A DNA stretch of 64,000 bases from an uncultured Pseudomonadota bacterium. GTDB lineage: Bacteria > Pseudomonadota > Alphaproteobacteria > JACZXZ01. Shown here in pieces: positions 22,440-40,599 of the stretch. The position numbers and the translations under genes are program-made. The stretch spans positions 448,001-512,000 of the forward strand of contig CAVVLJ010000021.1 in assembly GCA_963749075.1 (NCBI GenBank), in the 5' to 3' direction. The notes under the pieces are model-generated. The model was given only the letters and a program-made list of their open reading frames with translations, did no database searches and was not told the origin of the DNA. Positions within the stretch are counted from its first letter, which is position 1. Each line of letters starts with the position of its first letter.

Positions 22440-22478
22440 GTCCCCGTAGCTCAGCAGGATAGAGCGACAAATTCCTAA
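22440..22478 (+). repeat. attL: 5'-half fragment of tRNA-Arg(CCT)
   Basis: 38/39 nt identical to 40600-40638 (single A/G difference at 22470); identity ends at the anticodon loop ttcctaa. Confidence 0.93.
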
Positions 22479-22597
22479 ACTTTTTTAAGCCATTTTCATG
22501 GCTGAACATAGTGTCGCAAAAATCTGTTTTCTCCTTGTTTTTTATGACGTTAATGTGATCATATGAGCGCATAGCAAATCACCTCTACGCGCCCTGC

Positions 22598-22620
22598 GTG
22601 AGAGCCTATAGAGAGCCTAA
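22598..22620 (+). repeat. putative integrase arm-type binding sites (GAGAGCCTA direct repeats)
   Basis: gtgagagcctatagagagcctaa; 22/23 copy at 40536-40558 inside the other island end. Confidence 0.75.
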
Positions 22621-22623
22621 AGA

Positions 22624-23742
22624 GTGCCTCAGACGCATCTCACCGACCTGACGCTCAAGACACTCGGAGCGCCGGAGCACGGCCAAATTACCTATTGGGA
22701 TGATACGCTCTCCGGCTTCGGATTGCGGGTGTCGCAGGGAGGAGCAAGAACCTTCGTCCTGATCCACGGGAGACGCCGCCAACGGACAACGATCGGCCGC
22801 TATCCGATCATCACCCTTTCCCAAGCGCGCACGAAGGCCAAGGAGCTCTTGGCCGAGCGGACCCTCCGCAAGCACACGCTCCCCGCTATCACCTTTGGAG
22901 AAGCGATCGACTTGTTCCTGTCCACCCATTGCGAGCAAAAGAACAAGGCATCGACGGCTCGGGAAACGAAGAGGCTCTTGCAGAAGCACTTTTCCAGCCT
23001 CCGGCCTGAGAAGCTCGAGGACCTCGCCCCGGACGTGGTTTCGCGGATCATCGACCGGATGCTTCCTACACCCTCGGAGGCCAACCACGCCTTCACGGCT
23101 GTTCGCACCTTCTTCCGTTGGACCGTTCGTCGCCGCTACCTTCTCCATTCCCCCCTTGAAGGGATGAGCCTTCCCACACGTCCGAAATCCAAAGACAGGG
23201 TGCTTACGGACAAGGAGCTGGGCCAGCTGTGGCGGGCCTGCGAGGGACAGTTTGGGACACTCGTTAAGCTCCTCATGCTTACCGGCCAACGAGTCGGAGA
23301 AATTTCCGCACTCCGCTCCGAGTACCTCAATCAGAATACCAAGACGATTACCCTCCCGGCAGGACTTACGAAGAACGGCCGTGAGCACGCCTTCCCTTAC
23401 GGTCCCGCGGCCTCACGTCTCCTGCCGAAGGACAGGCACGGGTACCTCTTCCCGGCCCGCGGGAAGGACAAGCCGATGAATGGCTTCTCGAAGTGCCGGC
23501 TGGCCCTGGACGCGAGGGCCAAGATTGCTCACTGGACGCTTCATGACCTCCGCCGGACGTTCGCGACGAACCTCGCCGCCCTCGGCGTTCCCGTGCACGT
23601 TACCGAAAAACTCCTCAACCATGTCTCCGGTACCATCTCCGGCGTGGCCGCGATCTACAACCGGCACACCTACATGGACGAGATGCGCGCGGCGATGAAG
23701 GCCTGGGAAAAGCATTTGCAATCTCTGGTGGAGCAGGCATAG
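22624..23742 (+). CDS. tyrosine integrase with N-terminal arm-binding domain
   Basis: WDDTLSGFGLRVS, TGQRVGE, TKNGREH, HDLRRT, LLNH and IYNR catalytic motifs. Confidence 0.95.
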   Translation: MPQTHLTDLTLKTLGAPEHGQITYWDDTLSGFGLRVSQGGARTFVLIHGRRRQRTTIGRYPIITLSQARTKAKELLAERTLRKHTLPAITFGEAIDLFLSTHCEQKNKASTARETKRLLQKHFSSLRPEKLEDLAPDVVSRIIDRMLPTPSEANHAFTAVRTFFRWTVRRRYLLHSPLEGMSLPTRPKSKDRVLTDKELGQLWRACEGQFGTLVKLLMLTGQRVGEISALRSEYLNQNTKTITLPAGLTKNGREHAFPYGPAASRLLPKDRHGYLFPARGKDKPMNGFSKCRLALDARAKIAHWTLHDLRRTFATNLAALGVPVHVTEKLLNHVSGTISGVAAIYNRHTYMDEMRAAMKAWEKHLQSLVEQA

Positions 23743-23806
23743 CATTTCCTGCCCGCTAGCTGGTTCCTGGCGGCATCGCGATGCCCCTCTCACAAAGGGG
23801 TGTCCG

Positions 23807-24013
23807 ATGACACAGAAACTGGTCAGCAAGAAAGAGCTGAAATCGCTCTATGGAGTTCCGTATAGCTTCGCGCACATCGCGCGCCTTGAAGCGGCAGGCC
23901 AATTCCCGAAACGGATAAAGCTTGGTGCTTGCAGGGTGGCGTGGTTGGCCGAGGAAGTGCAGAGCTGGATAGACGAGCGCGTTGCTAACCGCGACACGAC
24001 ATCTCCTTCTTGA
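23807..24013 (+). CDS. AlpA family regulator / excisionase
   Basis: GQFPKRIKLGACRVAWLAEEVQSWI motif. Confidence 0.9.
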   Translation: MTQKLVSKKELKSLYGVPYSFAHIARLEAAGQFPKRIKLGACRVAWLAEEVQSWIDERVANRDTTSPS

Positions 24014-24019
24014 AGGGCG

Positions 24020-24049
24020 GGGGTCTGGCTTCCAAACCAGACCCCTTTT
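24020..24049 (+). terminator. rho-independent terminator after alpA
   Basis: ggggtctgg-cttccaaa-ccagacccc-tttt. Confidence 0.7.
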
Positions 24050-24094
24050 CACATTTCCTATTGGGGCCAGCTACAAGGTCGTTCTCGGCGGAAC

Positions 24095-25744
24095 CTAACG
24101 GACCCTTGTCAACTTGATAAAATTTACCTGGACGTTGAAATCCATCGCCTCAATCTTCCGAGCCTCGTCACGAAGCGTTAGCTTGCTAAAGAAGGGTATA
24201 TTATGTGTCCCGTCGCGTCTCGGAAAATCTGCGATCTGGAAATCGACAGTCCAGCGGTCCTTCAGCGCCGATTTGAATTCTTGCGCTTTTTTCGTCCCAT
24301 AATGCTCCCTCACCTTTTCAATCATTCCAACCTTGAACGGATCATATTGCCGTATCAGCTGCGCAGAGTGCCCTCCTTGCTTAAAAAAGTGGCTGAGCAG
24401 GCTCGATTGACGGGAGCTCTTCTTAATATGGATAAAGCGACGCCTCTCGACATCGAGTAAGTCGCACACTTCCATACCTTGGCCTGGTACTTCGTCGATT
24501 TTAACCAACCTCCTATCCATTAGCAGGTAGCCAGCCTCCGTTTCCATTTCCTTATTGTAGGACTCCTCCGATTGGTAGGTAACTCTCGCCCTTTTTGCCT
24601 TTGGACCGGATCGATCAATTTTCCTCAGCGGTCGCAATTTTTTATCCGGCTTACCACGCAGCTTCACGAACTTTTCGTCTGCCGCATCCTTGAATAACTG
24701 ATCTATGCGATACCAATTTCCCTCGTTTAGCGCGTATCGAGCACCATTCAAAATCAACGAGCCGACAAGCGAATCATGCACTGACCAATGGTCACACGGT
24801 CGCTTATCATCCTCGATATAGGCTGCCACGCTATGCTTGTTCAAATCCTCCAAGCTCAATTTTGCTAGATTGCTTCCCAGTGCCTCCCGATACAGGTCGA
24901 GCGACAGATCAGGATAAAACTTCCCAATTCGTGCGTGCTCAAATCGAAAAGACCCGACGCTCTCCGATACAATTTTTGGAATTGCAATTTCAAACTCGTC
25001 ACTCCCTCCGCGAATGGCCGCAACGAGGGCCTCGTCAAGAAGCGATTGAACAGTGTTGTCTAAGACGGGCGAAAGAAAGTCGATGATTTGAAAACTAGTA
25101 TTCTTATATGCCTCAGATTTAAAGAAATTAACAGCTTCTACGGCAGCATCCGGTACATCGGCTATCTCGATCCTCTTCGAGAACCTCAGCGCACGAGAGC
25201 CCGTCACTAAATCTGCAAACTCGTGATCCGCCGTGTAACCGCTTACCTTTCGAATCAGGTCCAACGCGTCATCAAAACCAAATGATCGGAGATCGCGCTG
25301 TCCGGCGGCCTGTGCAAAATCTCGAATCGCTGCGCCAATATTAGAGCGCTCTACACTTCGCAGCTTATCGTCGCTAACGGCGTTGATTGCTACCTTCAGA
25401 CCGAAATCAGCCTCCGTTTTTGAGTGATCCAAATAGACGTGCCCATATGAAAACGTCAGGGCGAAAATAGATTTCTCCTTTTTGAACACCAGAACGGCGC
25501 ACGGTGACTTCGAAAAGAGGTTCTCGGGAAGCGAAAATGAAGCCTTCAGCAATTCGACCCAATTTGGAATACCTTCATGACCAGGAAAAGTGTATAGGCC
25601 GCTACCGTCGCCAAATTCGGCGGAGGGGGTCTTCGTCGCCAGTTTCCGCTTTACCAAATCTCGAGCATTTTCAGTCAACAGGTCGTCAAAGCCGGTTACT
25701 TCAGCCTTTGCAAGATACAGCGAGAACGTGTTCAGTCTTGGCAC
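24095..25744 (-). CDS. DUF6119 / TIGR04141-like sporadically distributed protein
   Basis: FALTFSYG...DFGLKVAIN, ESYN, EVCDLL...FIHIKK...LSHFFKQG and IPFFSKLTL motifs; start uncertain (GTG 25744, frame open to 25819). Confidence 0.8.
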   Translation of the reverse strand: MPRLNTFSLYLAKAEVTGFDDLLTENARDLVKRKLATKTPSAEFGDGSGLYTFPGHEGIPNWVELLKASFSLPENLFSKSPCAVLVFKKEKSIFALTFSYGHVYLDHSKTEADFGLKVAINAVSDDKLRSVERSNIGAAIRDFAQAAGQRDLRSFGFDDALDLIRKVSGYTADHEFADLVTGSRALRFSKRIEIADVPDAAVEAVNFFKSEAYKNTSFQIIDFLSPVLDNTVQSLLDEALVAAIRGGSDEFEIAIPKIVSESVGSFRFEHARIGKFYPDLSLDLYREALGSNLAKLSLEDLNKHSVAAYIEDDKRPCDHWSVHDSLVGSLILNGARYALNEGNWYRIDQLFKDAADEKFVKLRGKPDKKLRPLRKIDRSGPKAKRARVTYQSEESYNKEMETEAGYLLMDRRLVKIDEVPGQGMEVCDLLDVERRRFIHIKKSSRQSSLLSHFFKQGGHSAQLIRQYDPFKVGMIEKVREHYGTKKAQEFKSALKDRWTVDFQIADFPRRDGTHNIPFFSKLTLRDEARKIEAMDFNVQVNFIKLTRVR

Positions 25745-25776
25745 GCCTGCACCGACCGTTAAGCCATCGACCGTAA

Positions 25777-26496
<720 letters not shown>

Positions 26497-26536
26497 CCGG
26501 CAGGGCCATCCTTCGATCGGGATATAATGGATCGAT

Positions 26537-26893
26537 ATGGAAGTCCGGCAGGAGCGCCACATCGCCGACATTCTCAAAGAGCGCAACATCATCCTCAGGG
26601 GCGCCGACGCCGCGACCGCCCAGGGCTTTACCCAAGTCCCGAATTTTCTCCTGAAATCAAAGAAGCTTAGCGCGGGCGACAAGATGGCGTTCGCCATGCT
26701 CCTCAGCTACGCATGGCAGAATGACTACTGCTTTCCGGGCCAACGGCGCCTCGCAGTCGATATGGGGCTAGACGAGCGCAGCGTCCGGAGGCACCTCAAA
26801 TCGCTCGAAGCCAACGGCCTCTTGGCTATCCAGCAGCGAGGGCTGGGGAAGACCAATATCTACGAATTGAACCTCAAGCCGCAGCGGTCGTAA
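26537..26893 (+). CDS. helix-turn-helix replication initiator-like protein
   Basis: FTQVPN...LSAGDK...LLSYA...CFPGQRRLA...ERSVRRHLKSLE..GL...TNIY pattern of phage/plasmid rep N-termini; followed by iterons. Confidence 0.8.
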   Translation: MEVRQERHIADILKERNIILRGADAATAQGFTQVPNFLLKSKKLSAGDKMAFAMLLSYAWQNDYCFPGQRRLAVDMGLDERSVRRHLKSLEANGLLAIQQRGLGKTNIYELNLKPQRS

Positions 26894-26896
26894 GCC

Positions 26897-26973
26897 GATC
26901 CAGACCGGACAAAAATGTCCGGTCCAGACCGGACAAAAACGCTCGGTCCAGACCGGACAAAAACGCTCGGTCC
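26897..26973 (+). repeat. 3.2 x 24-bp iteron array (putative origin)
   Basis: gatccagaccggacaaaaatgtcc, then ggtccagaccggacaaaaacgctc x2, then ggtcc, followed by an AT-rich stretch. Confidence 0.85.
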
Positions 26974-27118
26974 TCTATTAATGATACGCATCTAATGAGA
27001 CCCATTTAAAAATACCCAGTATGCAAAATGCCTTTCATAGAAAGGAAACCCGGAACCCAAAAGGCGCCGCCTGGAGGCGGCCAAGGCGGGGTTATCACCC
27101 CCCCTTACGCCCCGCCTT

Positions 27119-29082
27119 TAGGCCGAGCTTTTCATTGTCCGAAGCGATAAGGCGTTGAGATAGAATCGGAATTCGCCGTTTCGGGCGCTCGAATGTAGCC
27201 ATGCAGTCGTGCCATTTATAGCTTGACGGCGCGAGGTGGGGCTGATTCGATGTGTCATGCACATCGAGTCCGTGCCCAACCGCAAATCGCACCCGACCAT
27301 CCTGCTGCGCGAGAGCTACCGCGCGGAGGGCAAGGTGCGCAAGCGCACCATCGCCAATCTGACGCATTGGCCGGAGCAGCTGGTGGAGGGCTTGCGTACG
27401 CTGCTGCGTGGCGGCGTGGCGGTGGGCGGGGCGGAGGAGGCGCTGAGCATCAGCCGCTCGTTGCCCCATGGGCATGTCGCGGCGGTGCTGGGCACGGCGG
27501 AGCGGCTCGGCTTGGCGAAGCTCTTGAACGAGCGCCGCGGCGGGCCTGACGGGCGGCGCTATCGCGACTTGGTGCTGGCCCTCATCGTCAACCGCGTGAT
27601 CGCGCCGTCGTCCAAGCTGGCGGCGGTGCGGGCGCTGAATGCGGAGACGGCGGCGTCGAGCCTGGGCGAGCGGCTGGGTTTGGGCGCGGTGGGGGAACGC
27701 GAGATATACGCGGCCCTGGACTGGCTCCTCGCGCAGCAGGAGCGGATCGAGAAGGGGCTGGCCAGGCGCCATCTGGCCGGCGGCACGCTCGTCCTCTACG
27801 ACGTGAGCTCCTCGTATCTCGAGGGCCGCTGCTGCGAACTGGCGCAGCACGGCTATAGCCGCGATCATCGTCCCGACCGGCCGCAGCTCGTCTATGGCCT
27901 GCTGTGCAACCGGGAGGGCTGTCCGGTGGCGATCGAGGTGTTCGCAGGCAACACTGCCGATCCAATGACGCTCGCAGCCCAGCTGAGCAAGCTCAAGGGA
28001 CGCTTCGGCCTGGAGCGGGTGGTTCTGGTCGGCGACCGCGGCATGATCACCAGCGCCCGCATCCGCGAGGCGCTCGAGCCGGCGGGGCTGGATTGGATCA
28101 CCGCCTTGCGCGCGCCGAAGATCCAGGAGCTCGCCCAGGGCGGCCCGCTGCAACTGTCGCTGTTCGACGAGCGCGACCTGGCCGAGATCAGCGCCCCGGA
28201 TTATCCGGGCGAGCGCCTGATCGTCTGTCGCAATCCGCTGCTGGCGGCCGAGCGCCGACGCAAGCGCGAAGCCTTGTTGGCCGCGACCGAGCGGGACTTG
28301 AGCCGCGTCAAGCTGGCGGTAGAGCGCAAGCGCGTCCCCCTGCGCGGCAAGGCCGAGATCGGCCTGGACGTCGGCGCCGTGCTCGACAAGCACAAGATGG
28401 GCAAGCACTATGAGCTCTCGATCGGCGATGCCAGCTTCACGTACCGCCGCAAGGAAAGCGCCATCGCCGACGAAGCCCGCCTCGACGGCATCTATGTGAT
28501 CCGCACCAGCGTCCCGGCCGCCGCCCTCACGGCGGAGCAGGCTGTCGGCGCCTATAAATCCCTCGCCCAGGTCGAGCGCGCCTTCCGCTGCCTCAAGACC
28601 GCCGATCTCGAAATCCGCCCGGTCTTCCATTGGACCGCGCCGCGGGTGCGCGCCCATGTGCTGTTGTGCATGCTGGCCTACTACGTCGAATTCCACATGC
28701 GAGGCCATCTGGCGCCGCTGCTCTTCCACGACCACGATCGCGCCGCTGCCGCCGCCGAGCGCAAATCCATCGTCGCCCCGGCACAACGCTCCCCCGCGGC
28801 CAAGCGCAAGGCCACCGCGCGCCGCACCGATGACGGCTTGCCCGTCCATAGCTTCCGCAGCCTCCTCGATGACCTCGCCACCCTCTGCCTCAACAAGGTC
28901 AGCCTGCCCAGCAATCAGACGTACCGCTTCGATCTGCCGACCAAGCCGACGCCCCTCCAAGCCCGCGCCCTCGAACTGCTCGGCGTCGGCCTCGGGCTGT
29001 AGTCAGTACGCGACCATCACAAGCCCGATTTATCGAGTCGGCTCAGTGACTTGCTCATGTTCAAAGTAAAAAGTTCAGGCTA
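27119..29082 (+). mobile_element. IS1634-family insertion sequence
   Basis: Imperfect terminal IRs taggccgagcttttca / taaaaagttcaggcta around a single transposase; GC rises inside the element. Confidence 0.8.
27257..29002 (+). CDS. IS1634 family transposase
   Basis: LLRESYR.EGKVRKRTIANL, LYDVSS, GYSRDHR, VGDRGM, LDGIYVIRT and VERAFR motifs. Confidence 0.92.
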   Translation: MHIESVPNRKSHPTILLRESYRAEGKVRKRTIANLTHWPEQLVEGLRTLLRGGVAVGGAEEALSISRSLPHGHVAAVLGTAERLGLAKLLNERRGGPDGRRYRDLVLALIVNRVIAPSSKLAAVRALNAETAASSLGERLGLGAVGEREIYAALDWLLAQQERIEKGLARRHLAGGTLVLYDVSSSYLEGRCCELAQHGYSRDHRPDRPQLVYGLLCNREGCPVAIEVFAGNTADPMTLAAQLSKLKGRFGLERVVLVGDRGMITSARIREALEPAGLDWITALRAPKIQELAQGGPLQLSLFDERDLAEISAPDYPGERLIVCRNPLLAAERRRKREALLAATERDLSRVKLAVERKRVPLRGKAEIGLDVGAVLDKHKMGKHYELSIGDASFTYRRKESAIADEARLDGIYVIRTSVPAAALTAEQAVGAYKSLAQVERAFRCLKTADLEIRPVFHWTAPRVRAHVLLCMLAYYVEFHMRGHLAPLLFHDHDRAAAAAERKSIVAPAQRSPAAKRKATARRTDDGLPVHSFRSLLDDLATLCLNKVSLPSNQTYRFDLPTKPTPLQARALELLGVGLGL

Positions 29083-29198
29083 GAATAACGGTGGTACCGA
29101 ACGGACCGCAAAGACCCGACTAGGCCGGGCGAGCGAACTACGCAGAGTGATCAGGATTGCTCTTTTAAAACAGCGCCGAGACATAATTGGGGGACGAG

Positions 29199-30179
29199 AT
29201 GAACTCATCGCAGCAGATGGGAGTATCCGGATGCCGGTTGAGTGACGGGAGATTGCACTTAGGCCATTATCTTGGTTGTCTCCATCCGGAGAAGACCAAA
29301 CAAATCGGGGAGCTCTTCTTTGTCATTCAAGACGGTAAAACCAACTACTTAGCAGGTAAACCGCCGTCCGTGGAGCCGTTAGCCCTACTTCTCGCGCAAC
29401 TATACGCCTTTTGCACTGAAGATTGCACTATTGTTCCGTGCCTCCAAAGCAAAATCTTTCCTGCCTATGCGCCACTTTTTGATTTTGCCAGAGCCGTGAT
29501 TACGTTACGGGGCCTGGAGAGGGTCCATCCGAAGAAGGATGACTTGAAGGCTGCATTCGGTATTCCTCTTAGGGATTATCTTTTTCCAGTCGATCAAGCC
29601 GTTCAGTTCCTAGCGTTCGGGGCTGATTTTATTCTCATGAATGACGACAACATTCGCTTTGCGAGATTGGCAAATAACCTTCACAAGAAGCTTACCACAG
29701 CGGAGCACCGATCTATGCCGGCACCACGAATGGCACTTGATCCGGTCCCGAGATTGCTTGGAAGCAATGGGCAAAAAATGTCGAAGGCCAACGGCAACTG
29801 CATATTCCTTACGGACGACGACCGGACTGTAACCGAGCAGATTAGGAATTACGCTCGACGAATAGGCTGGAGGTGGACAAGAGATTGCCGATGGGAGTAC
29901 GAAGGAGAAGTCGCCCTGTCAGAAGAAATAGGCTCTGGCTCTGCCCTAGCTTCGATCTGTTTTACCTTTCAACTCGATTTTCCAGATTTGCGTTTGGCCG
30001 TCGAGTCAGTGCCCGACCTTATTGAACATCTTATAAAGCGTATCGTTCCATTAATTTCTGACGTTAGAGCGCGTACGCATGAAGCCATGAAATCAAAAGG
30101 GCTATTGTTTGACCGCTTAGCGGCTGACTCCACGCGTGCAACTCACCGAATTGCGAATACGATCGGGGCACTGATATGA
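29199..30179 (+). CDS. divergent tryptophanyl-tRNA synthetase-like (class Ic) protein
   Basis: GRLHLGHYLG (HIGH) and GQKMSKA (KMSKS) motifs at TrpRS length; FPVDQAVQ and MNDDN stand where TrpRS has YPxxQAAD and VGEDQ. Confidence 0.8.
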   Translation: MNSSQQMGVSGCRLSDGRLHLGHYLGCLHPEKTKQIGELFFVIQDGKTNYLAGKPPSVEPLALLLAQLYAFCTEDCTIVPCLQSKIFPAYAPLFDFARAVITLRGLERVHPKKDDLKAAFGIPLRDYLFPVDQAVQFLAFGADFILMNDDNIRFARLANNLHKKLTTAEHRSMPAPRMALDPVPRLLGSNGQKMSKANGNCIFLTDDDRTVTEQIRNYARRIGWRWTRDCRWEYEGEVALSEEIGSGSALASICFTFQLDFPDLRLAVESVPDLIEHLIKRIVPLISDVRARTHEAMKSKGLLFDRLAADSTRATHRIANTIGALI

Positions 30180-30895
30180 CGGATCGTCGATTCGTGTTAC
30201 TCATCCGGCACGCGGACTCAGAAAAAAATGCACTCGGTCAGTTTGCTGGCGATGCGTCTTCCGACCGACTTACTATGGCTGGGAAGCTTCAGCTAGAGCG
30301 CGTAAGGAGTGAAATTAACTCAATCATTAGCGCACTTGGGATCAAGTCGATCAGAATTGCACATGCTGATTCAGAACGCGCTAAGACGACCGCAGTCGCT
30401 CTTGCGGGTCCACTCGGCGCCGCGCTAAAGGCAGTTCCAGAATTTCGCTCAATTCGGTCTGGCATTGCAGCTGGCATGACAGAAAGTGAGATCGCAATTC
30501 AGTATCCCGAGTTCTACAATTCATTGACATTATATCGTGCGGGCGTTCTGTCCTCTTACGATATACCGTATCCGCTCGGCGCCGAGCGCGTTCAGGACTT
30601 TGAACGCATAGTCGAGGGCGCGCTGAGGAATCTGCTCTCCGATGCAGTCAACCAGTTCTTCATCGTTATTGGACATAGATCATCAATCACTGCAATTCTA
30701 CTGTATTACGCACGCCTCGTTCACGAATATCCATCAAATTTCTTCGGATATATACCGTTGGACCCGTGCGTCACGTCCTGTATTGACATACGGCTAGGCG
30801 CCGAGCAGATACTTTGGGTAAACCGAACGATTGACCGATCGTTTCTCGTTGGGGTCGTTAATAGGGTCGGGAGCACAGCGTCACGAAATGGCTAA
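30176..30895 (+). CDS. histidine phosphatase superfamily protein
   Basis: LLIRHADSEKN (RH[G/A] motif), RAKTTA, GAE and GHRSSI; ATGA overlap with the upstream gene. Confidence 0.85.
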   Translation: MTDRRFVLLIRHADSEKNALGQFAGDASSDRLTMAGKLQLERVRSEINSIISALGIKSIRIAHADSERAKTTAVALAGPLGAALKAVPEFRSIRSGIAAGMTESEIAIQYPEFYNSLTLYRAGVLSSYDIPYPLGAERVQDFERIVEGALRNLLSDAVNQFFIVIGHRSSITAILLYYARLVHEYPSNFFGYIPLDPCVTSCIDIRLGAEQILWVNRTIDRSFLVGVVNRVGSTASRNG

Positions 30896-31528
30896 GGGTC
30901 GCCTACCTTCCAGCACCCTCTCGGCCATTATCAAAGCCGTTAGGTAATAATTTTGAATCCGCGGTAGAAACCGGTTCTTCGTAATTTCTTCTACGCAAGA
31001 AATCCAAACGTGAGCTTTCGCATCATATCGGATTCCATTCACACGTATGATCTCTAACTTTTCTTCAAACAGCTTCATGCCTGCGCTGACTGGAAGCGCC
31101 AAGAGGCCGTGCACCTCGTTTGGATCGGGGCGGTAGCTCTCAAGTGGTCTGTCATCTCTGAGCATAAAGACTCCCTGATATTCTCTATTTAGCTGACCGT
31201 TCTCCTGATCTGCCACTTCCACACGGTACCCGAGCCATTTTAAATCGCTCGAGCGCACGGTAATACCAAGCTCCTCTGATACTTCACGGATACCATCACT
31301 AAGTTCCTCACCTGTACGGAGATGCCCGGCTGCGGTTATATCCAGAAGATTCGGGTAATTCTTTGCCACAGGCGAGCGAAGCTGAAAAAGCAGGCTTCCT
31401 TTGTACTCTCCAGTTACTACCCAAAGATGAAAAGTCCGGTGCCATGCTCCCTGCATGTGTGCCGACAGTCGATCAGCAACACCGGTCTTTTTGAGATTCG
31501 CGTCGAATATGTCGATCTGTTCGGACAT
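30881..31528 (-). CDS. NUDIX hydrolase (IDI-like subfamily)
   Basis: HRTFHLWV, LDITAAGH and Nudix box GHLRTGEELSDGIREVSEELGI. Confidence 0.88.
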   Translation of the reverse strand: MSEQIDIFDANLKKTGVADRLSAHMQGAWHRTFHLWVVTGEYKGSLLFQLRSPVAKNYPNLLDITAAGHLRTGEELSDGIREVSEELGITVRSSDLKWLGYRVEVADQENGQLNREYQGVFMLRDDRPLESYRPDPNEVHGLLALPVSAGMKLFEEKLEIIRVNGIRYDAKAHVWISCVEEITKNRFLPRIQNYYLTALIMAERVLEGRRPLAIS

Positions 31529-31538
31529 GGAGAGACTT

Positions 31539-32830
31539 CTACTGGTTGCGAACTGATAGGGTTCTGGCCACCTTCTGCCTCTTGGCATGAATCTCGAGTG
31601 CGGCGGTTCGACGTCCTAGAGCCGTTAGGAGGCGCTCTTCGAGAACAAGGCCTTTGTTTAATCGCTCGTAGTCGGCGATTGATTCAAACGAAGTGGTAGC
31701 AGCGCTAACGAGCGCTAGGGCGTCCATCGCCTTTTTTGTCGATTCCCTATCTTTCGGTAAGTCGCTCCCGTGGTTGAGAACACCTAAGCTCCGGGCGAGA
31801 ATCGTTGCTCGGGCGTGGTCGATCTGCGCCTTGTCGCGAACCAAGGCATCTTTAAAGTGTTCGACATTCTCGTTAAGGCCTCTCAGGGACGTAATCACCT
31901 CCTCCGCTCGGTCCAAGAACCTATGGCCATCCTCCTCCCGCTGAGTCATCATTGCCATATGCCTATAACCCTTGGCTGCTGTGAGTCGCATTTCAACTAT
32001 ATCAGAAGCATTTTGTGTACTCTGAGCAGTAGCAATCTCAATTCCGCGTTGGATGTTCTCTAAGGCGACTGCATCCTGTCCTAGGAGGTGCGACGCCCAT
32101 CCAAGGTCGTCGACGAGAACCCGTGCTCTGTCCAACGCGGCCTCTGTGTCGACCGCGGCAACAAGCGCCATTTCACCTAATTTGACTTCTCGTTTGATTC
32201 TCCACCGATTAGGTGCAACAGATGAGACATACTTTCGCGAATATGTAGCACAGTGGTCATCTTACCTTGTTGTACAAGCATAGCAACATATTCCGTGAGG
32301 GCCTTAACAAATGCAGCTTGACAGTCATTCACGGAAGCATTTTCACGTGGCAACGCTGCGCGTCGAAGAATGGCATTTTGATGCCCTCGGATAAGCGACT
32401 CATAGTAGGTCTCGAGCTGTCGGATCCTATCAGATGCGATCTTCTGCCATTGCGCTTCGTCTGGGGCCTTCGGTTTCGTGGCATACGCTTCCCACGCCGA
32501 CCCTCGCACCTTCTTCTCAACGCCCTTGGTTCTATAATGGGGGTGAGTCCCACTGTAGCTAAGAGTTGCCAGAAGTTCCGCAGTAACATTAATCTGTCTT
32601 GACGACGCGTTCTTGCCCTTCCAAATCGCGCGCTTCCAGTTCGAAAGATCGCTTTGGGACAAACCTAAACTCTTACGAAAATCGCCAGAGTGGTCCCGAC
32701 CTTCCGAAAAGGCTGCCGCCACCCAGCTGAAGAAACTCTCAATCGAAGCGATTAAGGTCGGTTCCGGAGGTGGAACCTCCGAGACCTCGTACGTTTCAGG
32801 GTCCCCCATGACGCCCTCCGAGGTACACAT
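31539..32830 (-). pseudogene. HTH-like plus helical-repeat (TPR-like) protein, split by a probable 1-nt frameshift near 32190
   Basis: ORFs 32177-32830 and 31539-32171 join as LLHLIGGESNE-x-VKLGEMALVAA if one base is restored; N-terminal RKSLGLSQSDLSNWKR; C-terminal DDLGWASHLLG...ALENIQRGIEIA. Confidence 0.6.
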
Positions 32831-33311
32831 ATCATAAATCGGAGAGGCGTCGCAAGTTGGGCGCTAATTTGCCCAAGATGACGCCCAAGCCCGCGGCCAA
32901 ATTTTCCAGAAAATAGGTCCAACTGGGCTACATAAATTGCGCGACGGTACCAAGCTACATTGGTCCTGACGCGTTCGCATGCCAGACCATAATCCCTCAC
33001 TGATGCTCGCGCCACTTCATTAGGAGGGTCCAATGGATCACTTCGTCTTAGCGGCCCATGCGATCGTCTTGGCGATCGCCGCCACCCGCGAGTGGGCCTC
33101 AAGATGCGATGGAACTCATGCGATCGACGAACAATTCGCGATGCACGTCGCTGCGGCAGTCGCCATCTTCGAGTGGCTCAGGGTTATTAGCCTTTTTTGG
33201 GCGTGACAGGGTCGCCGCCGGGACGCCGGCGGCGGTTACTCGCCCGCCTTTGACCTGCCGGTGCTGAGCCCTGCGTTGCCACCTGCGGAACGAGAAACAA
33301 CGGAGAAAAAC

Positions 33312-33783
33312 ATGAGCTACGTTAAACATGAGCTTTTGGCTAACGAAAAGATCATCTTCCAGGGGAGGCTTCACTGGATCATCTTTTGGAAAGCCTTGAC
33401 GTTTGCCATTTGTGGTACTGGAATGCTGCCTCTCGGATACGCGCTTGGTGAAAGCCATGTGGTTATTCTTACGATTTCCGCATTCGCGTATTTTATTGCA
33501 GCTTGTCTGTTCGTGCCCGCTTGGTTTATTCGGTGGACTACGGAGTTCGCGGTCACAAATTTGAGGGTGATACACAAGACCGGATTTGTCTCCCGCCATA
33601 CCGAGGAAATGAATATTGGTAGGATTGAGTTTGTGGACGTTGATCAAACGATCCTCGGAAGAATTTTCGATTACGGTACGATTTCATGTGCTGGGAACCG
33701 GGCACGGTATTGAACACCTTCACTGTATCGCTGAGCCAATTAGGATTAGGAACGCAATTGTTGAAAGAGAGCATAGCTCATAG
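33312..33783 (+). pseudogene. bacterial PH domain (bPH_2) membrane protein, frameshifted near 33682
   Basis: Two TM segments, TTEFAVTNLRVIHKTG and VDQTILGRIFDYGTI; shifted frame continues HVLGTGHGIEHLHCIAEPIRIRNAI. Confidence 0.75.
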
Positions 33784-33794
33784 TGTCTTGCTCT

Positions 33795-33905
33795 TCTGCT
33801 GTTGGGAACCCTTCTTCGCAACACGTAGAAGATCGCGTTGACGATCTCGCGCCATGTCCAATCACGCGGCCTACTGAGCCGCTCCGGCGGCGGCGGAAGT
33901 CTAGT
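33795..33905 (-). mobile_element. IS5-family transposase N-terminal remnant
   Basis: Minus strand reads LPPPPERLSRPRDWTWREIVNAIFYVLRRR. Confidence 0.7.
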
Positions 33906-34032
33906 GTCTTATTGATGAACCCACGCGGCTACTCGCGCGCTGGAACGGATAACATGGTGCGGTATTGACAGAGCCTAAGTCGAATCCCGATTACAAACGG
34001 GAAGAACGGACGCTCACCGTTACAAAGGACTT

Positions 34033-34695
34033 TCAATCTTCCCAAAAGGACTTGAATCGCTCCGGCGAGAGCTCGGTGTAGCGTACCGTGTGCTGGATAT
34101 TCTTGTGTCCGAGATAGTGCTGTACAGCACGCGTGTCCTGTCCGTCGTTCGCGAGTTTGTACCCGCAGGCGTGCCGGAGCATGTGCGGGTGAATCGGAAA
34201 CGGAAATTTCGCGGTCCCCCCTATCCGTGCAAGCATCTTACGAAATCCCGCGGGCGTCATCGGCGCCCGGCGCTCGGTGTTGAACACGTAGCGCGATTGC
34301 GGCTCCTCGCGCTTGAGCCTGCGAAGTGATCGGATTTCGTTCCCGCCCATCGGATGCACGCTCGGCGTTCCGTTCTTGAGGCGCCGGACGTGGAGCAGAT
34401 CATTTCCCAGATCGACCTGATCCCATCTTAGCACGCAGAGCTCTCCAGGCCGAAGCCCGTGGCGGTACGCCGTGAGGATCATCGTCGCATTGCGATGCCC
34501 GTAGCGCCCCCGCTCCCGAGCGGTGCCCATGAGCAGTCCGACTTCCTTGAGCGTGAGATATTCCCGCGGCCGGCGCGTGCTGTTGCCTACTCGGCGCGGG
34601 GGTACTGTCCCATTTATAGTGCTTGGCGGTCTCCGCCGCCGGATGTTTTTGGCCTTTGTTTTCCCTGTCGCCATATCGTCTACTGTCCCGTTCAT
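34033..34695 (-). CDS. FimB/FimE-like tyrosine recombinase
   Basis: ~200 aa, REYLT..EV, RHGLR, RLKNG, HPHMLRHACG and YLGHKNIQHTVRYT motifs. Confidence 0.9.
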   Translation of the reverse strand: MNGTVDDMATGKTKAKNIRRRRPPSTINGTVPPRRVGNSTRRPREYLTLKEVGLLMGTARERGRYGHRNATMILTAYRHGLRPGELCVLRWDQVDLGNDLLHVRRLKNGTPSVHPMGGNEIRSLRRLKREEPQSRYVFNTERRAPMTPAGFRKMLARIGGTAKFPFPIHPHMLRHACGYKLANDGQDTRAVQHYLGHKNIQHTVRYTELSPERFKSFWED

Positions 34696-35000
34696 GCCTC
34701 TTTTCGGGACAGTTCAACTTTACCACACCCTGGCAGCTCCAAGCATGAACGCTTCTGAACTCGACTCTCCCATTCTCTTCCCTTAACTCGCCACCTCGAA
34801 ATCGATTTCCCTCGAACCGCTATGTCGGCAGGCCACGCTTGCCTGACCTAGGGATACCTTGATGAACGACCTCCTTTTGCGAGCGCCTGCTCAATGCTAT
34901 TCTAAGCGCGCGAGCACCACGATGGTCGACGTCTGGAAAAACGTCGGAGACGATCGGTCTGCGACGCCCCATTCGATAACCCTATTAATCGGAGCGACAC

Positions 35001-36011
35001 TTGCCAGATAGTTCGATAAGGCCGAAAACTAAGCGCCGCAATGGAGCGGTCACACGTGCATATCGCACGAAGCTCGGTAAGATGATCAATGGAACCATCG
35101 AAGATGCCCTTAGTCACCACGAACTAGCTCGAGCTCGAGGCAAGGTCAATCTCATTCTAACTTCGCCACCCTTTCCATTAGTCAGAAAGAAGCGTTACGG
35201 AAACAAGTCAGGAAAAACATATGTCGCTTGGCTTAAGGGCCTCGCGCCCCGGCTCGCCGAGTTGCTCGCGCCGAACGGATCAATTGTGATCGAGGTGGGC
35301 AACGCATGGGTAGAGGGATCGCCTGCCATGTCGACGTTGCCCATTGAAGCGCTTCTTGCATTCAAGAGAGCGGCAAAGCTCCACCTCTGCCAGCATATAA
35401 TTTGCCACAACCCGGCGCGGCTTCCGAGTCCGGCCGAGTGGGTAAATGTCCGACGCATCCGCTTGAAAGACTCGTTCACCCATGTATGGTGGATGTCTCG
35501 ATCCGAGTTACCGAAAGCCGATAATCGAAATGTCCTCACGCCATACGGCAAACAAATGAGGAAGCTTTTGAAAACAAAAAAATATAACTCCGGTAGGCGC
35601 CCGTCTGGCCACGTGATTTCGAAAACGGGATTTCTAAAGGACCGCCAGGGCGCAATCTCGGCCAACGTTATTGACTTTGCTCCCGAAGACCCCAAGTTAC
35701 CCCGCTCCCTTCTAAAATTCTCGGGCACTTCGTGGGACATAAATTACCGCAAATACTGTGAAAAGAAGAAAACAGCCGTTCACCCAGCGCGCATGCAAAT
35801 GGATTTGGCCGCGTTTTTAATACAATTTCTAACTGATCTAGGAGATTTAGTCTTAGACCCTTTTGCGGGATCAAATACAACCGGAGCCGCCGCAGAAGAG
35901 CTTGGCCGCCGCTGGATAAGTGTTGAGGCAATATCCGGATACGTCAAAGGGTCGAAAGGGCGCTTCAATCAGTTCGCGAAGCGTCGGAAGGCGAGCACCA
36001 AAAACCGATAA
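35001..36011 (+). CDS. site-specific DNA methyltransferase (beta class, likely N4-cytosine)
   Basis: LILTSPPF catalytic motif first, then HPAR and VLDPFAGSNTTG SAM-binding motif. Confidence 0.9.
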   Translation: MPDSSIRPKTKRRNGAVTRAYRTKLGKMINGTIEDALSHHELARARGKVNLILTSPPFPLVRKKRYGNKSGKTYVAWLKGLAPRLAELLAPNGSIVIEVGNAWVEGSPAMSTLPIEALLAFKRAAKLHLCQHIICHNPARLPSPAEWVNVRRIRLKDSFTHVWWMSRSELPKADNRNVLTPYGKQMRKLLKTKKYNSGRRPSGHVISKTGFLKDRQGAISANVIDFAPEDPKLPRSLLKFSGTSWDINYRKYCEKKKTAVHPARMQMDLAAFLIQFLTDLGDLVLDPFAGSNTTGAAAEELGRRWISVEAISGYVKGSKGRFNQFAKRRKASTKNR

Positions 36012-36019
36012 GTATCGGA

Positions 36020-37609
36020 ATGGAGGAGGCAATGACCTCTGACAAGATTGAAACCGAGCTCACTATAGGTCCGGAGGCTATCGACGCATATAGCCGGCTC
36101 AATTATACAATGTGGCACGCCCTCGCTGAGTTTATCGATAACTCGACGCAGTCAAGGGTGAACTATGAGCCGATCATTGATGACGTGCTAAAAAGTGAGG
36201 GGCAGCCTCTCACTGTCGAGATTAACCACAACCGCCTACGCAAGGAGATAACCGTTAAAGACAATTCGATTGGAATGACGAGAGACGACCTGATCCAAGC
36301 CCTCCGCATCGCTCATCGAACCAAGGACAGCAAGGGACGTTCGAAGTACGGCATGGGAATGAAGACAGCTGCATGTTGGATAGGTCGCACTTGGAAGGTT
36401 GTGACATGCGAGTGGAGCAGCGGCGAGGAATGGACGGCAGAGATCGATGTCAAAGCGATCGCACATGATAATAAGAAGATTTCGCTGAGTATGCGCCCTG
36501 TAAGTAGGGATGAGCATTACACACAAATAGTCATATCTGACCTCCATCGAAACATCCAGGCGCGCACCGAGGAAACTATCAAAGGGTACCTTGGATCGAT
36601 GTATCGGGTCGATCTCCTCGCGGGCAACCTCAAGATTTTGTACAACGGCGACGAAGTGAAGGCACCGGAAGAATACGACATCGATACAGACCCCTCGGGT
36701 AATCAGTATAAGCGGGAGTTGCCCGAGACTAAGATCAACGGCAAGATTGTAAAAGGCTGGATTGCCGTGCTTCGAAAAGGTGGCCGCAAGTTTGGCGGGT
36801 TTTCGTTGTTCCAAAACAATAGACAAATTCAGGGATTTCCCCACGCATGGAAACCGAGAAGTATTTACGGCGGTGTGGACGATGAAGGGGCCAATAATCT
36901 GATCTCCCAACGCCTCGTGGGGGTTTTCGATTTGGACGGTTTCGAAGTGTCGCATACGAAGGACGCCATTCTCTTCGAGGATGACGAAGAAGAACAGATT
37001 GAACGCCTGCTTTTTGGGTTTACAAAAGACTATCGAGACTACGCGCAAAGGCGTCGTGGCCCGCGCGGAACGCCGTGGTCCCGGGACAAGGTTCGTGACT
37101 TAATCGAGAGCATGAAGAAAGAGTTTGTTACTCCCGAAATGAAGGACGCAATAAACAATTCGCTGCTTCCTCCGATCGACACGATTATCGGAAACAACGA
37201 GCAGCGACGCGACGCGCTAACCGACGCAGAAAAGCTGGCAACGATCGAAGTCCTACCAGAGCTTCGCGTCGTCGTCTCGCTTCAGGAAAAGAGCGAGCAT
37301 GAGCCGCATCTGACGATCGTAGCTGGCGCTACAGCAGGTACTATTCACGTAATTATAAACGGACTGCATCCCTACTACTGCGCCTTAGATTCCAGCGACG
37401 CAGTGGACGAGTGCATTCGTCAATATCTCTATGATGCCATCTCGGAATATCGGGTATCCAAACTCACTGGGGGAATTAATCCCAACAGCATTCGTCGACT
37501 TAAAAACGATCTCCTTCGGGTCGATGCGGTACGGATAGAGGATGCAGCCAAGGCCGTCCAAGATGGAGAGTTTGAGGCAATTATCCGCGGCGAGGCCTCA
37601 AAAGCATAA
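36020..37609 (+). CDS. MORC/GHKL-type ATPase
   Basis: ALAEFIDNS, DNSIGM, GRSKYGMGMKTAA and HYTQIVI Bergerat-fold motifs; S5-like middle domain (NRQI, SHTKD). Confidence 0.85.
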   Translation: MEEAMTSDKIETELTIGPEAIDAYSRLNYTMWHALAEFIDNSTQSRVNYEPIIDDVLKSEGQPLTVEINHNRLRKEITVKDNSIGMTRDDLIQALRIAHRTKDSKGRSKYGMGMKTAACWIGRTWKVVTCEWSSGEEWTAEIDVKAIAHDNKKISLSMRPVSRDEHYTQIVISDLHRNIQARTEETIKGYLGSMYRVDLLAGNLKILYNGDEVKAPEEYDIDTDPSGNQYKRELPETKINGKIVKGWIAVLRKGGRKFGGFSLFQNNRQIQGFPHAWKPRSIYGGVDDEGANNLISQRLVGVFDLDGFEVSHTKDAILFEDDEEEQIERLLFGFTKDYRDYAQRRRGPRGTPWSRDKVRDLIESMKKEFVTPEMKDAINNSLLPPIDTIIGNNEQRRDALTDAEKLATIEVLPELRVVVSLQEKSEHEPHLTIVAGATAGTIHVIINGLHPYYCALDSSDAVDECIRQYLYDAISEYRVSKLTGGINPNSIRRLKNDLLRVDAVRIEDAAKAVQDGEFEAIIRGEASKA

Positions 37610-37613
37610 CCAC

Positions 37614-38771
37614 GTGGTGCCAAAATTGGAACTCCGAAACTGGCAAAACGAGGCGTTGGCTCGATGGGAGGAGAATAGCCACCGCGGCATAATCGAAGTC
37701 GTTACCGGAGGAGGTAAGACCATATTTGCACTGTCGTGCATCGATAAGCTAAATCCCGATACGTCGCTGGTAGTAGTTCCGACCATTGCGCTATTGGATC
37801 AATGGTGGGAGGAAGCAGCAAGTTTTTTTGGCATCGAGATCGATGAGGTTCATGTCATCACCGGACGGCAGAAGGTCAGAGTTGGCACGATTAATCTTGC
37901 GGTGCTCAACACTGCATCGAAGCTCCATGAACAAGCCCGAAGTCAGCGTTGCTTCCTAATTGTCGATGAATGCCATAAGGCAGCGAGCGAACAATTTCGG
38001 GCCGTCTTGAATATTCCTACGGTTGCGACCCTCGGTTTATCGGCGACACCAGAACGTCCTTACGATGATGGGCTTCGCGCAATTCTTGTTCCTGCCCTTG
38101 GCCCCGTAATTTATACATACAGCTATAGAGACGCCCTTCGTGATGGCGTGATAGTCCCATTCGCCCTTCGCAACATACTATTTGAGCTCGAGGAGGACCG
38201 GCAAAAAGAATATAGCAAGCTTACCAAAGCAATCGCCCGTACCATTGACCTGTATGGTGTTGACGCACAAGAGACGGTCAAGCTGTTTTTACGCCGCGCC
38301 CGAGTGCTAAATCTTAGTCTCAATCGCGTTCGTTTGGCCCTGAAAATTGTTGCCGCCCATAAAGGTCAGCGAGTGTTGATTTTTCACGAGGACATCGAAG
38401 CATGCAATTTGATTCACCAGATTCTTGCGGAAAACAAAGTGCGGGTTGGAATATATCACTCGAAGATGTTGCTTCGTGACCGTGTTGACATGCTGTCGGC
38501 ATATCGCAGGGGCGTCGTGGATGTGCTCGTCACCTGTCGGGCGCTTGATGAAGGGTTCAATGTGCCTGAGACTGAGATCGGTATTATAGCCGCGAGCACG
38601 GCAACGAGGCGTCAGCGCATCCAGCGTCTGGGGCGAGTCCTCCGCCCCTCTATGGGCAAGGGCAGAGCCATTGTATATACCCTCGTTGCAACCGAGCCGG
38701 AAATTGGGCGGTTGCAAGCGGAAGAAACGGACCTTGAGGGTGTCGCTGATGTGACGTGGGGGCACGCGTGA
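37614..38771 (+). CDS. DEAD/DEAH-box SF2 helicase (XPB/ResIII-like)
   Basis: LRNWQ, TGGGKT, DECH, LSAT, LDEGFNVP and QRLGRVLR motifs. Confidence 0.9.
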   Translation: MVPKLELRNWQNEALARWEENSHRGIIEVVTGGGKTIFALSCIDKLNPDTSLVVVPTIALLDQWWEEAASFFGIEIDEVHVITGRQKVRVGTINLAVLNTASKLHEQARSQRCFLIVDECHKAASEQFRAVLNIPTVATLGLSATPERPYDDGLRAILVPALGPVIYTYSYRDALRDGVIVPFALRNILFELEEDRQKEYSKLTKAIARTIDLYGVDAQETVKLFLRRARVLNLSLNRVRLALKIVAAHKGQRVLIFHEDIEACNLIHQILAENKVRVGIYHSKMLLRDRVDMLSAYRRGVVDVLVTCRALDEGFNVPETEIGIIAASTATRRQRIQRLGRVLRPSMGKGRAIVYTLVATEPEIGRLQAEETDLEGVADVTWGHA

Positions 38772-38945
38772 GAACGATTTTTGTTGGTGAATGCGCCCCG
38801 GACAAGATTCTTCACGTGTCCGACCCTGACGCTCCGAACGAAACCCAATTCGAGTTTATGGTGGTTAGAGCGTTATCATGCGTCTACCCTGACTATTTAT
38901 GCTTCATTTTTGGTGGATCGTTTCGTTACGATGACAAACTTTGCC
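38768..38945 (+). pseudogene. 5' fragment of a gene interrupted by IS3 (possible nuclease)
   Basis: GTGA overlap with the helicase stop; reads VRTIFVG...NETQFEFMVVRALSCVYPDY...; cut at the IS left end. Confidence 0.6.
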
Positions 38946-39013
38946 TGAGCTGGTCCTGGAAAATCGGACAGGGTGATAAGGTGTATTCCGCCGGATAACG
39001 GAGGGATACGACG

Positions 39014-39295
39014 ATGACGACGAGACGGCGGTTTACGGGCGATTTCAAGGCCCGGGTAGCCCTGGAAGCGTTGCGGGGCGACAAGACGGTTCAGGAGATC
39101 GCGGCCAAGCACAAGGTGCATCCGAACCAGGTGAGCACGTGGAAGCGCCAAGCGATCGACGGCTTGGGCGAGGTGTTCTCGAGCGGGGTGGACCGCGAGC
39201 GCCAGGATCACGAGAGCGAGGTTCGCGATCTCCACGCCAAGATCGGGCAGTTGACGGTGGAACGGGATTTTTTGGCCAGAGGGCTCAAGCGATGA
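39014..39295 (+). CDS. IS3 family transposase OrfA
   Basis: RRRFTGDFKARVALEAL...HPNQVSTWK...KIGQLTVERDFL. Confidence 0.92.
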   Translation: MTTRRRFTGDFKARVALEALRGDKTVQEIAAKHKVHPNQVSTWKRQAIDGLGEVFSSGVDRERQDHESEVRDLHAKIGQLTVERDFLARGLKR

Positions 39296-40248
39296 GCCGG
39301 GGGGAACGCAAGGCGATGATCACGCCCGGCCACCCCGACTTGAGCTTGAGCCGCCAATGCCGGCTTCTCTCGATCAGCCGCTCCTCGTTCTATTACGCCC
39401 CCAGGGGCGAGAGCCCGGAGAACCTGGCGCTGATGCGCCGCATCGACGAGCTGTTTCTGCGCTGCCCCTTCTACGGCAGCCGGCAAATGGTGCGCCAGTT
39501 GCGACGGGAGGATATCTCGGTCGGCCGCCACCGGGTTCGGCGGCTGATGCGCCTCATGGGCCTGGAGGCGATCTACCAGGCGCCGAGAACCAGCACGCCG
39601 CACCCGGCGCACCGGGTCTATCCCTATCTGCTGCGGGATGTGGCGGTGGACCGCCCCGATCATGTCTGGTGCGCCGACATCACCTACATCCCGGTGCGGC
39701 GCGGCTTCCTCTATCTGGTCGCGATCATGGACTGGGCGACGCGCCATGTCCTGGCGTGGCGGCTGTCGAACACCATGGATGCCAGGTTCTGCATCGAGGC
39801 GCTGAACGAGGCGCTGGCCGAATACGGCCGGCCCGAGATCTTCAACACCGACCAGGGCAGCCAGTTCACCAGCCTCGACTTCACCGGCGTGCTCAAGGAC
39901 GCGGCGATCGCGATCTCGATGGACGGGCGGGGGCGGTGCCTGGACAACATCTTCATCGAGCGCCTCTGGCGGTCGCTGAAATACGAGGCCGTCTACCTGC
40001 ACGAGATGACGGATGGCTTCGCGGCCGAGCGTGTCATCGGCGAGTGGATCGCGTTCTACAACACCGAGCGGCCGCACTCGGCGCTTGACGGCAGGACGCC
40101 CGCGGAAGCCTACTCGACCGGGCGGCCTGTGGATATGATGGACAAGGCTGGCGCCTTGCCCACATCTCCACAGGCCCAACAGCAACAAAAAGCGTTCAAC
40201 ATGATTCGAAGTCTTGGCAGCGTGATCAGCATCCGGAATACACCTTAA
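39292..40248 (+). CDS. IS3 family transposase OrfB (DDE integrase core)
   Basis: WCADITY, FNTDQGSQF, DNIFIERLWRSLKYE and YNTERPHS motifs. Confidence 0.92.
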   Translation: MSRGERKAMITPGHPDLSLSRQCRLLSISRSSFYYAPRGESPENLALMRRIDELFLRCPFYGSRQMVRQLRREDISVGRHRVRRLMRLMGLEAIYQAPRTSTPHPAHRVYPYLLRDVAVDRPDHVWCADITYIPVRRGFLYLVAIMDWATRHVLAWRLSNTMDARFCIEALNEALAEYGRPEIFNTDQGSQFTSLDFTGVLKDAAIAISMDGRGRCLDNIFIERLWRSLKYEAVYLHEMTDGFAAERVIGEWIAFYNTERPHSALDGRTPAEAYSTGRPVDMMDKAGALPTSPQAQQQQKAFNMIRSLGSVISIRNTP

Positions 40249-40558: not shown

Positions 40559-40562
40559 GCAT

Positions 40563-40591: not shown

Positions 40592-40599
40592 ATTAAGAA

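Follow-up and report, generated by a model that had tools for sequence, protein, structure and literature searches.

A horizontally mobile four-gene module combines a tryptophanyl-tRNA synthetase paralogue with histidine phosphatase, Nudix and TPR-like genes

Gene content of the locus

We analysed a 64,000-nt stretch of DNA (the window) from an uncultured alphaproteobacterium (GenBank assembly GCA_963749075.1, contig CAVVLJ010000021.1, positions 448,001 to 512,000), in which four neighbouring genes encode a protein resembling tryptophanyl-tRNA synthetase (TrpRS), a histidine phosphatase, a Nudix protein and a protein of tetratricopeptide-repeat (TPR) type. A preliminary description of this DNA had proposed that these genes form a self-contained module belonging to a candidate undescribed system. 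Their positions in the window are as follows.

29199..30179, plus strand: TrpRS paralogue (326 aa; PF00579, 9.7e-9)
30176..30895, plus strand: histidine phosphatase, branch 1 (239 aa; PF00300, 2.5e-16)
30881..31528, minus strand: Nudix protein, IDI/YfcD-like (215 aa; PF00293, 22.7 bits)
31539..32171, minus strand: TPR-like helical-repeat protein, C-terminal part (210-aa open reading frame, ORF)
32177..32830, minus strand: TPR-like protein, N-terminal part (217-aa ORF; soluble domain and first TPR helices)
32186..32204, minus strand: frame break between the two TPR-gene ORFs (base omissions in contigs of metagenome run X1)

The arrangement first described, two convergent pairs of low-GC genes, was confirmed, with a GC content of 0.50-0.52 at the module as against 0.66-0.73 in the flanks. 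The stop codon of the TrpRS-like gene overlaps the start of the phosphatase gene in an ATGA (30176-30179), the two pairs overlap by 15 bp at their stops (30881-30895), and a 10-nt spacer (31538-31529) separates the stop of the helical gene from the ATG of the Nudix gene. The identities proposed for the three enzymes were likewise borne out by Pfam (tRNA-synt_1b, His_Phos_1 and, at 1e-4, NUDIX), and the TrpRS-like protein contains the HLGH motif already noted, and also KMSKA. The fourth gene had been described as one helix-turn-helix (HTH)/helical-repeat gene at 32830-31539 on the minus strand; its position and its helical, TPR-like part stood, whereas it is not a single intact ORF, being read in two ORFs in different frames, and the HTH part found no sequence support in Pfam, NCBIfam or the PDB. 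The likely start of the N-terminal ORF is its second ATG, at 32809.

Conservation of the module

Motif scans and tblastn identified 13 other loci containing the TrpRS paralogue (three in genomes, eight in metagenomes, one on a plasmid and one in a further genome), here designated by L numbers. The phosphatase gene accompanies the paralogue in 12 of the 13, L006 ending inside the TrpRS-like gene; the Nudix gene is present in 11, the exceptions (L005 and L006) being contigs of 1.2-1.8 kb that end before its expected place; and the TPR gene is found in seven, the contigs of the other six ending at or before the Nudix gene. All absences of a partner gene thus fall at contig ends. The loci span at least three phyla (Chloroflexota, Chlorobi/Bacteroidota and, within the Pseudomonadota, the Alphaproteobacteria), with Anaerolineaceae, Chlorobiaceae, Bacteroidetes, Thalassospira marina and Ruegeria sp. 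as named hosts. L017 corresponds to genes RS24175-RS24195 of the 908-kb plasmid pCSC3H3 of T. marina CSC3H3.

The genes are ordered TPR, Nudix, an occasional methyltransferase, paralogue and phosphatase. L012 shares the convergent two-pair layout of the window, L010 inverts the phosphatase gene only, and the 4-bp start/stop overlap between paralogue and phosphatase genes also occurs in L003, L004, L011, L017 and L021. In L007 (1789-2556) and L017 (12654-13406), a class I S-adenosylmethionine (SAM)-dependent methyltransferase (Methyltransf_11/25) separates the Nudix gene from that of the paralogue.

Over the nine complete modules, identity ranges from 31 to 63% for the Nudix protein and from 19 to 50% for the paralogue, with one close pair at 94% and 85%, respectively. 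The sub-clades formed by L003, L004 and L009, and by L017 and L021, are the same in all three enzymes. The four genes, recurring together in 13 other loci of at least three phyla, are one conserved functional unit, in line with the self-contained module proposed earlier, and one that is, additionally, horizontally mobile.

The TrpRS-like protein belongs to a separate clade

A word-based search of 5.8 billion clustered proteins returned only 18 relatives of the TrpRS-like protein at E ≤ 0.001, and a profile search of 1.84 billion representatives returned 2448 matches at the same threshold, 88 of them at E ≤ 1e-30. Roughly the first 95 ranks of the latter carry HLGHYxGC-type and NDDN motifs, and true TrpRS, with VPVGEDQ and KMSKS, appear from about rank 96. 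The size of the paralogue clade is put at about 80-95 sequence clusters at 50% identity.

The window paralogue scores 52.3 bits on TIGR00233, the TrpRS equivalog model, below its cut-off of 176.75, and a true TrpRS is encoded elsewhere in the host genome (306.4 bits on the same model). The profile of the paralogue family could be aligned with solved TrpRS from end to end, the C-terminal helical domain included (6ncr, 7.5e-34; TrpRS II, 1.7e-31), and the paralogues, of 320-346 aa, equal bacterial TrpRS in length. The likeness to bacterial TrpRS, including 6ncr and Deinococcus radiodurans TrpRS II (PDB 2a4m, 1yi8), comprises the full-length class Ic fold, the HxGH and KMSK motifs and the size.

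We then compared alignment columns between 77 full-length family members (out of 84, the 7 below 290 aa being left out) and 18 TrpRS, taken by their GxDQ and KMSKS motifs from rank 96 onwards. The aspartate that contacts the indole nitrogen is Asp132 in B. stearothermophilus numbering, and a role of Met129 and Asp132 in TrpRS is reported (10.64898/2026.03.23.713518). The window paralogue has Gln at this position and NDDN in place of GxDQ. The corresponding column (136) holds Asp in 18/18 TrpRS, as against Thr (19), Tyr (14) or Gln (9) among the 77 family members; at the GxDQ columns, where TrpRS have G, E/K/D, D and Q, the family has N (73), D (63), D (73) and N (70), and NDDN is kept in 70-73 members. 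Conversely, HxGH (H20, H23) is kept in 76/77 members, the TrpRS keeping HxG(H/N). In the KMSK motif, the first position is K in 51 and R in 26 members, as compared with K in 18/18 TrpRS, M is found in 69/77, and the second K in 57/77, as compared with 18/18 TrpRS. Conservation in the family is lowest in the C-terminal third, and hardly any column past residue 200 is invariant.

In a tree, the paralogue family and TrpRS form two separate groups (support 0.998), a test that is partly circular because the TrpRS group was selected by motif. On these sequence comparisons, the TrpRS-like protein is assigned to a separate paralogue clade, which has lost the indole-reading Asp and kept the ATP motifs, KMSK in part; this clade further differs from TrpRS in its constant linkage to Nudix and His-phosphatase genes. 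With these motifs lost, we rejected the possibility that the protein is a true TrpRS or a TrpRS of the resistance type. Cyclodipeptide synthases are devoid of ATP motifs; as the paralogue keeps them, this identity was also rejected.

Paralogues of aminoacyl-tRNA synthetases (aaRS), such as MshC, GluQRS/YadB and EpmA/PoxA, acylate acceptors other than tRNA, reusing the aaRS core as an ATP-dependent ligase. They descend from a different parent enzyme and, to our knowledge, none of them is linked to Nudix, His-phosphatase and TPR genes.

In the ESM Atlas, the paralogue was closest to short viral W/Y-domain clusters (0.92), which serves as a lead only, and comparison with PHROGs gave weak matches only. 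Separately, five TrpRS-type proteins (P0133, P0135, P0148, P0116 and P0120) carry N-terminal fusions, three to a GNAT acetyltransferase, one to a YbaK-type tRNA_edit domain and one to a chorismate mutase.

Histidine phosphatase and Nudix enzymes

The phosphatase matches PF00300 with 60.4 bits, above the cut-off of 21.7, and R11, H12, R68 and E137 are invariant in the nine module copies. The second catalytic His is present in the window protein and in seven of nine copies.

The Nudix protein exceeds the PF00293 cut-off of 21.1 bits, and its best PDB matches are IDI (4.5e-5) and YfcD (4e-4). Residues H24, H30, H34, A67, G68, H69, E74, R81, E82, E85, E86, G88, N114 and E116 are invariant in 7/7 copies, and the REx2EE core of the Nudix box is intact, with a spacer of six residues, by hand count, instead of the canonical seven. 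The likeness to IDI type 1 and E. coli YfcD includes the metal-binding His residues, E116 and R51. Unlike these proteins, the module Nudix has Ala in place of the IDI catalytic Cys67 in 7/7 copies, Asn instead of E114 and a hydrolase-type REx2EE box, and it scores below the cut-offs of both IDI profiles (NF002995, 56.8 bits against 127; TIGR02150, 30.8 against 105.8) and below that of YfcD. An identity as IDI was rejected given the loss of the catalytic Cys.

Distant relatives of this Nudix protein also occur on plasmids, next to annotated HAD-family hydrolase (phosphatase) genes, in L018 (4292-5612; Phaeobacter) and in hit H5 (Cytobacillus). In L018, which is hit H9, the two genes overlap, constituting another pairing of Nudix and phosphatase.

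The fourth gene and its frame break

The 210-aa C-terminal ORF is 44% identical to a one-piece protein of 332/333 aa from L012, and the 217-aa N-terminal ORF shares 57% identity with P0029, a protein that continues without a change of frame into the TPR domain. One-piece homologues spanning both window ORFs are found in L012 (333 aa), P0029, L017 of T. marina (441 aa) and L021 (G267; 413 aa), and we therefore placed a frame break in the window near 32186-32204. In run X1, a soil metagenome that may be the source sample, the Logan contigs have one base fewer at 32187 and, reading from a loose end after 32202, also omit one C of the CC at 32202-32203. By hand reading, both omissions together join the two frames, after which four of the five intervening codons agree with P0029. 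Errors would hardly produce such agreement, and the frame break therefore probably reflects faulty assembly or strain variation. X1 contains a third single-base difference at 31537, in the Nudix spacer, and each of the three differences affects one base of a two-base run. The depth of the X1 contigs is below 5, some X1 bins and most X2 bins had no contig cover, and no RNA data set was listed as carrying this stretch; a 12-letter loose end of X1 before 32579, with about five differences from the window, could not be interpreted.

Neither window ORF of the TPR gene had a match in Pfam; among homologues, that of L003 reaches 29.2 on TPR_12 (cut-off, 30.1) and a fragment from L004 reaches 33.2. 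The AlphaFold2 (AF2) model of the L012 protein is an all-helical superhelix (pLDDT 86.9), whose best Foldseek matches are the TPR domains of LGN/Pins, KLC and Rap (E 5e-4, TM 0.34-0.49). The fourth component is thus one gene, whose product is predicted by modelling to be a TPR superhelix protein.

Among 14 TPR homologues, the N-terminus consists of one or two hydrophobic helices in nine and of a soluble domain, or none, in five. The window protein, P0029, L017 and L021 begin with a soluble domain some 170 aa long, and L007 has neither type. The search with the N-terminal domain region returned the window's own protein alone, which is no evidence of uniqueness because P0029 clearly shares this domain. 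In the ESM Atlas the domain reached at most 0.82, including a cluster named HigA at 0.80 (a lead only), and the AF2 model of the N-terminal ORF, built with its only relative, was unusable (pLDDT 39).

That the protein is an HTH regulator, as its earlier label would imply, appears unlikely: Pfam and NCBIfam contained no HTH match for the N-terminal ORF and no relevant sequence turned up in the PDB, the homologous domains of L017 and L021 have only a shorter, non-conserved version of the segment that resembles an HTH, and most relatives are predicted to be membrane-anchored. The protein resembles the RRNPP regulators Rap, NprR and PlcR in its TPR superhelix, with fold matches to RapH and RapI at E ~0.02. 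It differs from them in that no HTH was detected, most module TPR proteins are predicted to be membrane-anchored, and no linked peptide gene was seen. Complex prediction of residues 70-332 of the L012 TPR protein with the Nudix protein gave a score of 0.01, which is evidence neither way.

The module is carried on mobile DNA

In the window, the module lies within an 18.2-kb low-GC island (22440-40641; GC 0.50, as compared with ~0.70 in the flanks), bounded by a 42-nt direct repeat (95% identical; 22440-22481 and 40600-40641) corresponding to the 5' half of tRNA-Arg(CCT). A further repeat occurs near the island ends (22598-22620 and 40536-40558), and a tyrosine-recombinase/integrase ORF (22624-23742) adjoins the left repeat copy. 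None of ten genomes from the host's family has the paralogue, the four weaker matches in other families scoring like ordinary TrpRS, and a sample of 400 further genomes of the class contained it only once.

A type II methylase gene (PDLC03323, 4.5e-72), a HATPase_c_3 gene and a PbeA-like ResIII helicase gene (4.3e-77) lie in a row at 35001-38771 of the window, in what looks like a restriction- or phosphorothioation-type defence cassette adjoining the module. At other loci, the following neighbours were found.

L012: integrase, DUF6998, fragment of a type III restriction endonuclease
L009: AbiEi/AbiEii
L021: integrase, two transposases and, at 4028-4510 on the minus strand of the same mobile island, a Tox-ART-HYD1 (ADP-ribosyltransferase-type) protein
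L017: type IV secretion genes
L010: Uma2

Overall, mobile or defence-type neighbours are present in six of about nine loci with usable flanks, proximity to defence genes being a check suggested at the outset.

In line with the earlier remark that no named defence system with this composition was known, PADLOC-DB v2.0.0 yielded 0 families for the five window ORFs and the homologues from L003 and L012, and only the optional methyltransferase of L007 touched a PADLOC model, the generic methyltransferase mad2 (1.9e-13). In the full-text literature we found no description of the module, a search that did not cover the supplementary tables of defence-system surveys.

Proposed function and alternatives

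The module probably makes or processes a nucleotide-linked compound. We infer that the TrpRS paralogue would bind ATP and form the adenylate of a substrate other than tryptophan, which it would pass to an acceptor, possibly not tRNA-Trp. The Nudix protein would split the diphosphate linkage in a nucleotide or another X-diphosphate compound and, after it, the His-phosphatase would take off the remaining phosphate, in a sequential dephosphorylation. The TPR protein may hold the enzymes together or couple them to a trigger.

Our tentative preference is that these activities serve biological conflict, as a defence-type module making, trimming or clearing a nucleotide-derived signal or toxic compound. 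A more explicit version appears unlikely as it stands, namely that the module is a conflict system of a new class, in which the paralogue would consume ATP to make an aminoacyl- or acyl-nucleotide or -nucleoside, serving as a signal or as an aminoacyl-nucleoside-type translation poison, which the Nudix and phosphatase enzymes would shape or clear, with the TPR protein, through its membrane or soluble N-terminal domain, as trigger or effector. The sensor, synthase and two-eraser roles assigned in the preliminary description, together with an anti-phage role, would fit the mobile and defence-type neighbours, their sole support.

Known defence systems with nucleotide signals, such as CBASS, Pycsar and Thoeris, use membrane-helix effectors, and variable N-termini are a pattern of defence effectors and sensors. 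The module resembles these systems in being island-borne and in combining a nucleotide-handling enzyme with a partner that has membrane helices or a swappable N-terminus. It differs from them in having no cyclase, TIR, SAVED or PADLOC match, and in drawing its candidate synthase from the aaRS paralogues. Moreover, the usual ligands of TPR domains are peptides, not nucleotides.

Several observations weigh against a conflict role, or against the enzymology proposed for it. With no PADLOC match, the defence reading has to be drawn from the neighbourhood, and neighbours of the defence or mobile type are missing at L002 (which has NadA/NadC neighbours), L003 and L007. KMSK lacks its second Lys in 20/77 paralogues and the second catalytic His is absent from 2/9 phosphatases, and viral contigs, scanned by motif, yielded no relatives. 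The full TrpRS length of the paralogue, including the C-terminal domain, means that a tRNA acceptor is possible. Lastly, the SAM methyltransferase inside the operons of L007 and L017 points to the tailoring of a biosynthetic product, and agrees with a small-molecule pathway no less well than with defence.

The alternative that survives best is a small pathway of biosynthesis or salvage that plays no part in conflict, and we consider it possible, if somewhat doubtful. The Nudix and phosphatase enzymes would strip a diphosphate precursor to an alcohol or nucleoside, to which the paralogue would ligate an amino acid or carboxylate; the optional methyltransferase would tailor the product, and the membrane TPR protein would put the pathway at the envelope. 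Dephosphorylation by a Nudix enzyme and then a phosphatase is known pathway logic, exemplified by NudB in folate synthesis and by Pur7/Pur3 in puromycin synthesis. In addition to the methyltransferase genes, such a pathway is favoured by the plasmid relatives H5 and H9, whose Nudix genes adjoin (and in H9 overlap) HAD phosphatase genes, by the retention of the IDI-type metal-binding His and Glu and of Arg51 in the Nudix protein, and by the housekeeping neighbours of L002 and L003. However, no conserved transporter, regulator or further biosynthetic gene accompanies the module at the loci inspected, its distribution is extremely patchy and island-borne, the paralogue diverges very fast in comparison with the Nudix protein, and the TPR protein has an exchangeable N-terminal domain.

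It is improbable, in our estimation, that the module is directed at tRNA, with the paralogue binding a tRNA so as to attach a different residue to it or keep hold of the 3' end, and with the Nudix and phosphatase enzymes removing blocking (pyro)phosphates, in end repair or tampering. Toxins that block tRNA 3' ends exist, a gene for an AbiEii nucleotidyltransferase toxin adjoins L009, and the paralogue equals bacterial TrpRS in length and, by its family profile, aligns with solved TrpRS throughout, the C-terminal helical domain included. Nevertheless, stronger conservation of the C-terminal third, the part of the family that is kept least, would be expected of a specific anticodon reader, and Rfam scans linked no tRNA gene or RNA motif to the module, with no match at gathering score in nine loci and only sub-threshold, chance-level matches in the window between 22000 and 40000.

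The paralogue could also be an auxiliary TrpRS that resists an antibiotic, as in indolmycin resistance, and has its neighbours by coincidence. Although its closest solved structures include the auxiliary TrpRS II of D. radiodurans, this is highly improbable in view of its score far below the TrpRS equivalog cut-off, the loss of the indole-binding Asp and of GxDQ, and its fixed linkage to three other genes. Finally, a chance juxtaposition of unrelated island cargo, for which nothing speaks beyond the general mosaic nature of genomic islands, is refuted for practical purposes by the co-occurrence counts, with the same gene set and order in 13 other loci of at least three phyla.

Returning to the proposed conflict role, if the module does serve in defence or toxin production, the known enzymes of bacterial immunity would come to include an aaRS-derived synthase; a metabolic pathway would instead point to a novel nucleotide- or diphosphate-derived metabolite. 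In either case, an entire clade of TrpRS paralogues travels on mobile islands in fixed company with three partner genes, and aaRS paralogues with new chemistry, such as MshC, GluQRS, EpmA and the cyclodipeptide synthases, have each opened a new area of biochemistry. The cultured carrier T. marina CSC3H3, with pCSC3H3, makes the function of the module directly testable.

Other features of the island

The island contains further genes around the module.

24095-25819, minus strand: DUF6119 protein (574 aa, 5.5e-129; no PADLOC match), on the left side of the island
27236-29002, plus strand: insertion sequence transposase DDE_Tnp_1, with a host-like GC content (0.66-0.69), directly upstream of the TrpRS-like gene
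33261-33713, plus strand: bPH_2 (bacterial PH domain) membrane protein, between the module and a second integrase

Two sets of short repeats were also observed to the left of the module. A GTCGCGAC-rich 38-nt repeat occurs six times at 25929-26296, with four of the copies overlapping at 10-nt steps, inside ORF 25798-26385, and three 24-nt tandem units are found at 26896-26973, after an HTH_36 gene.

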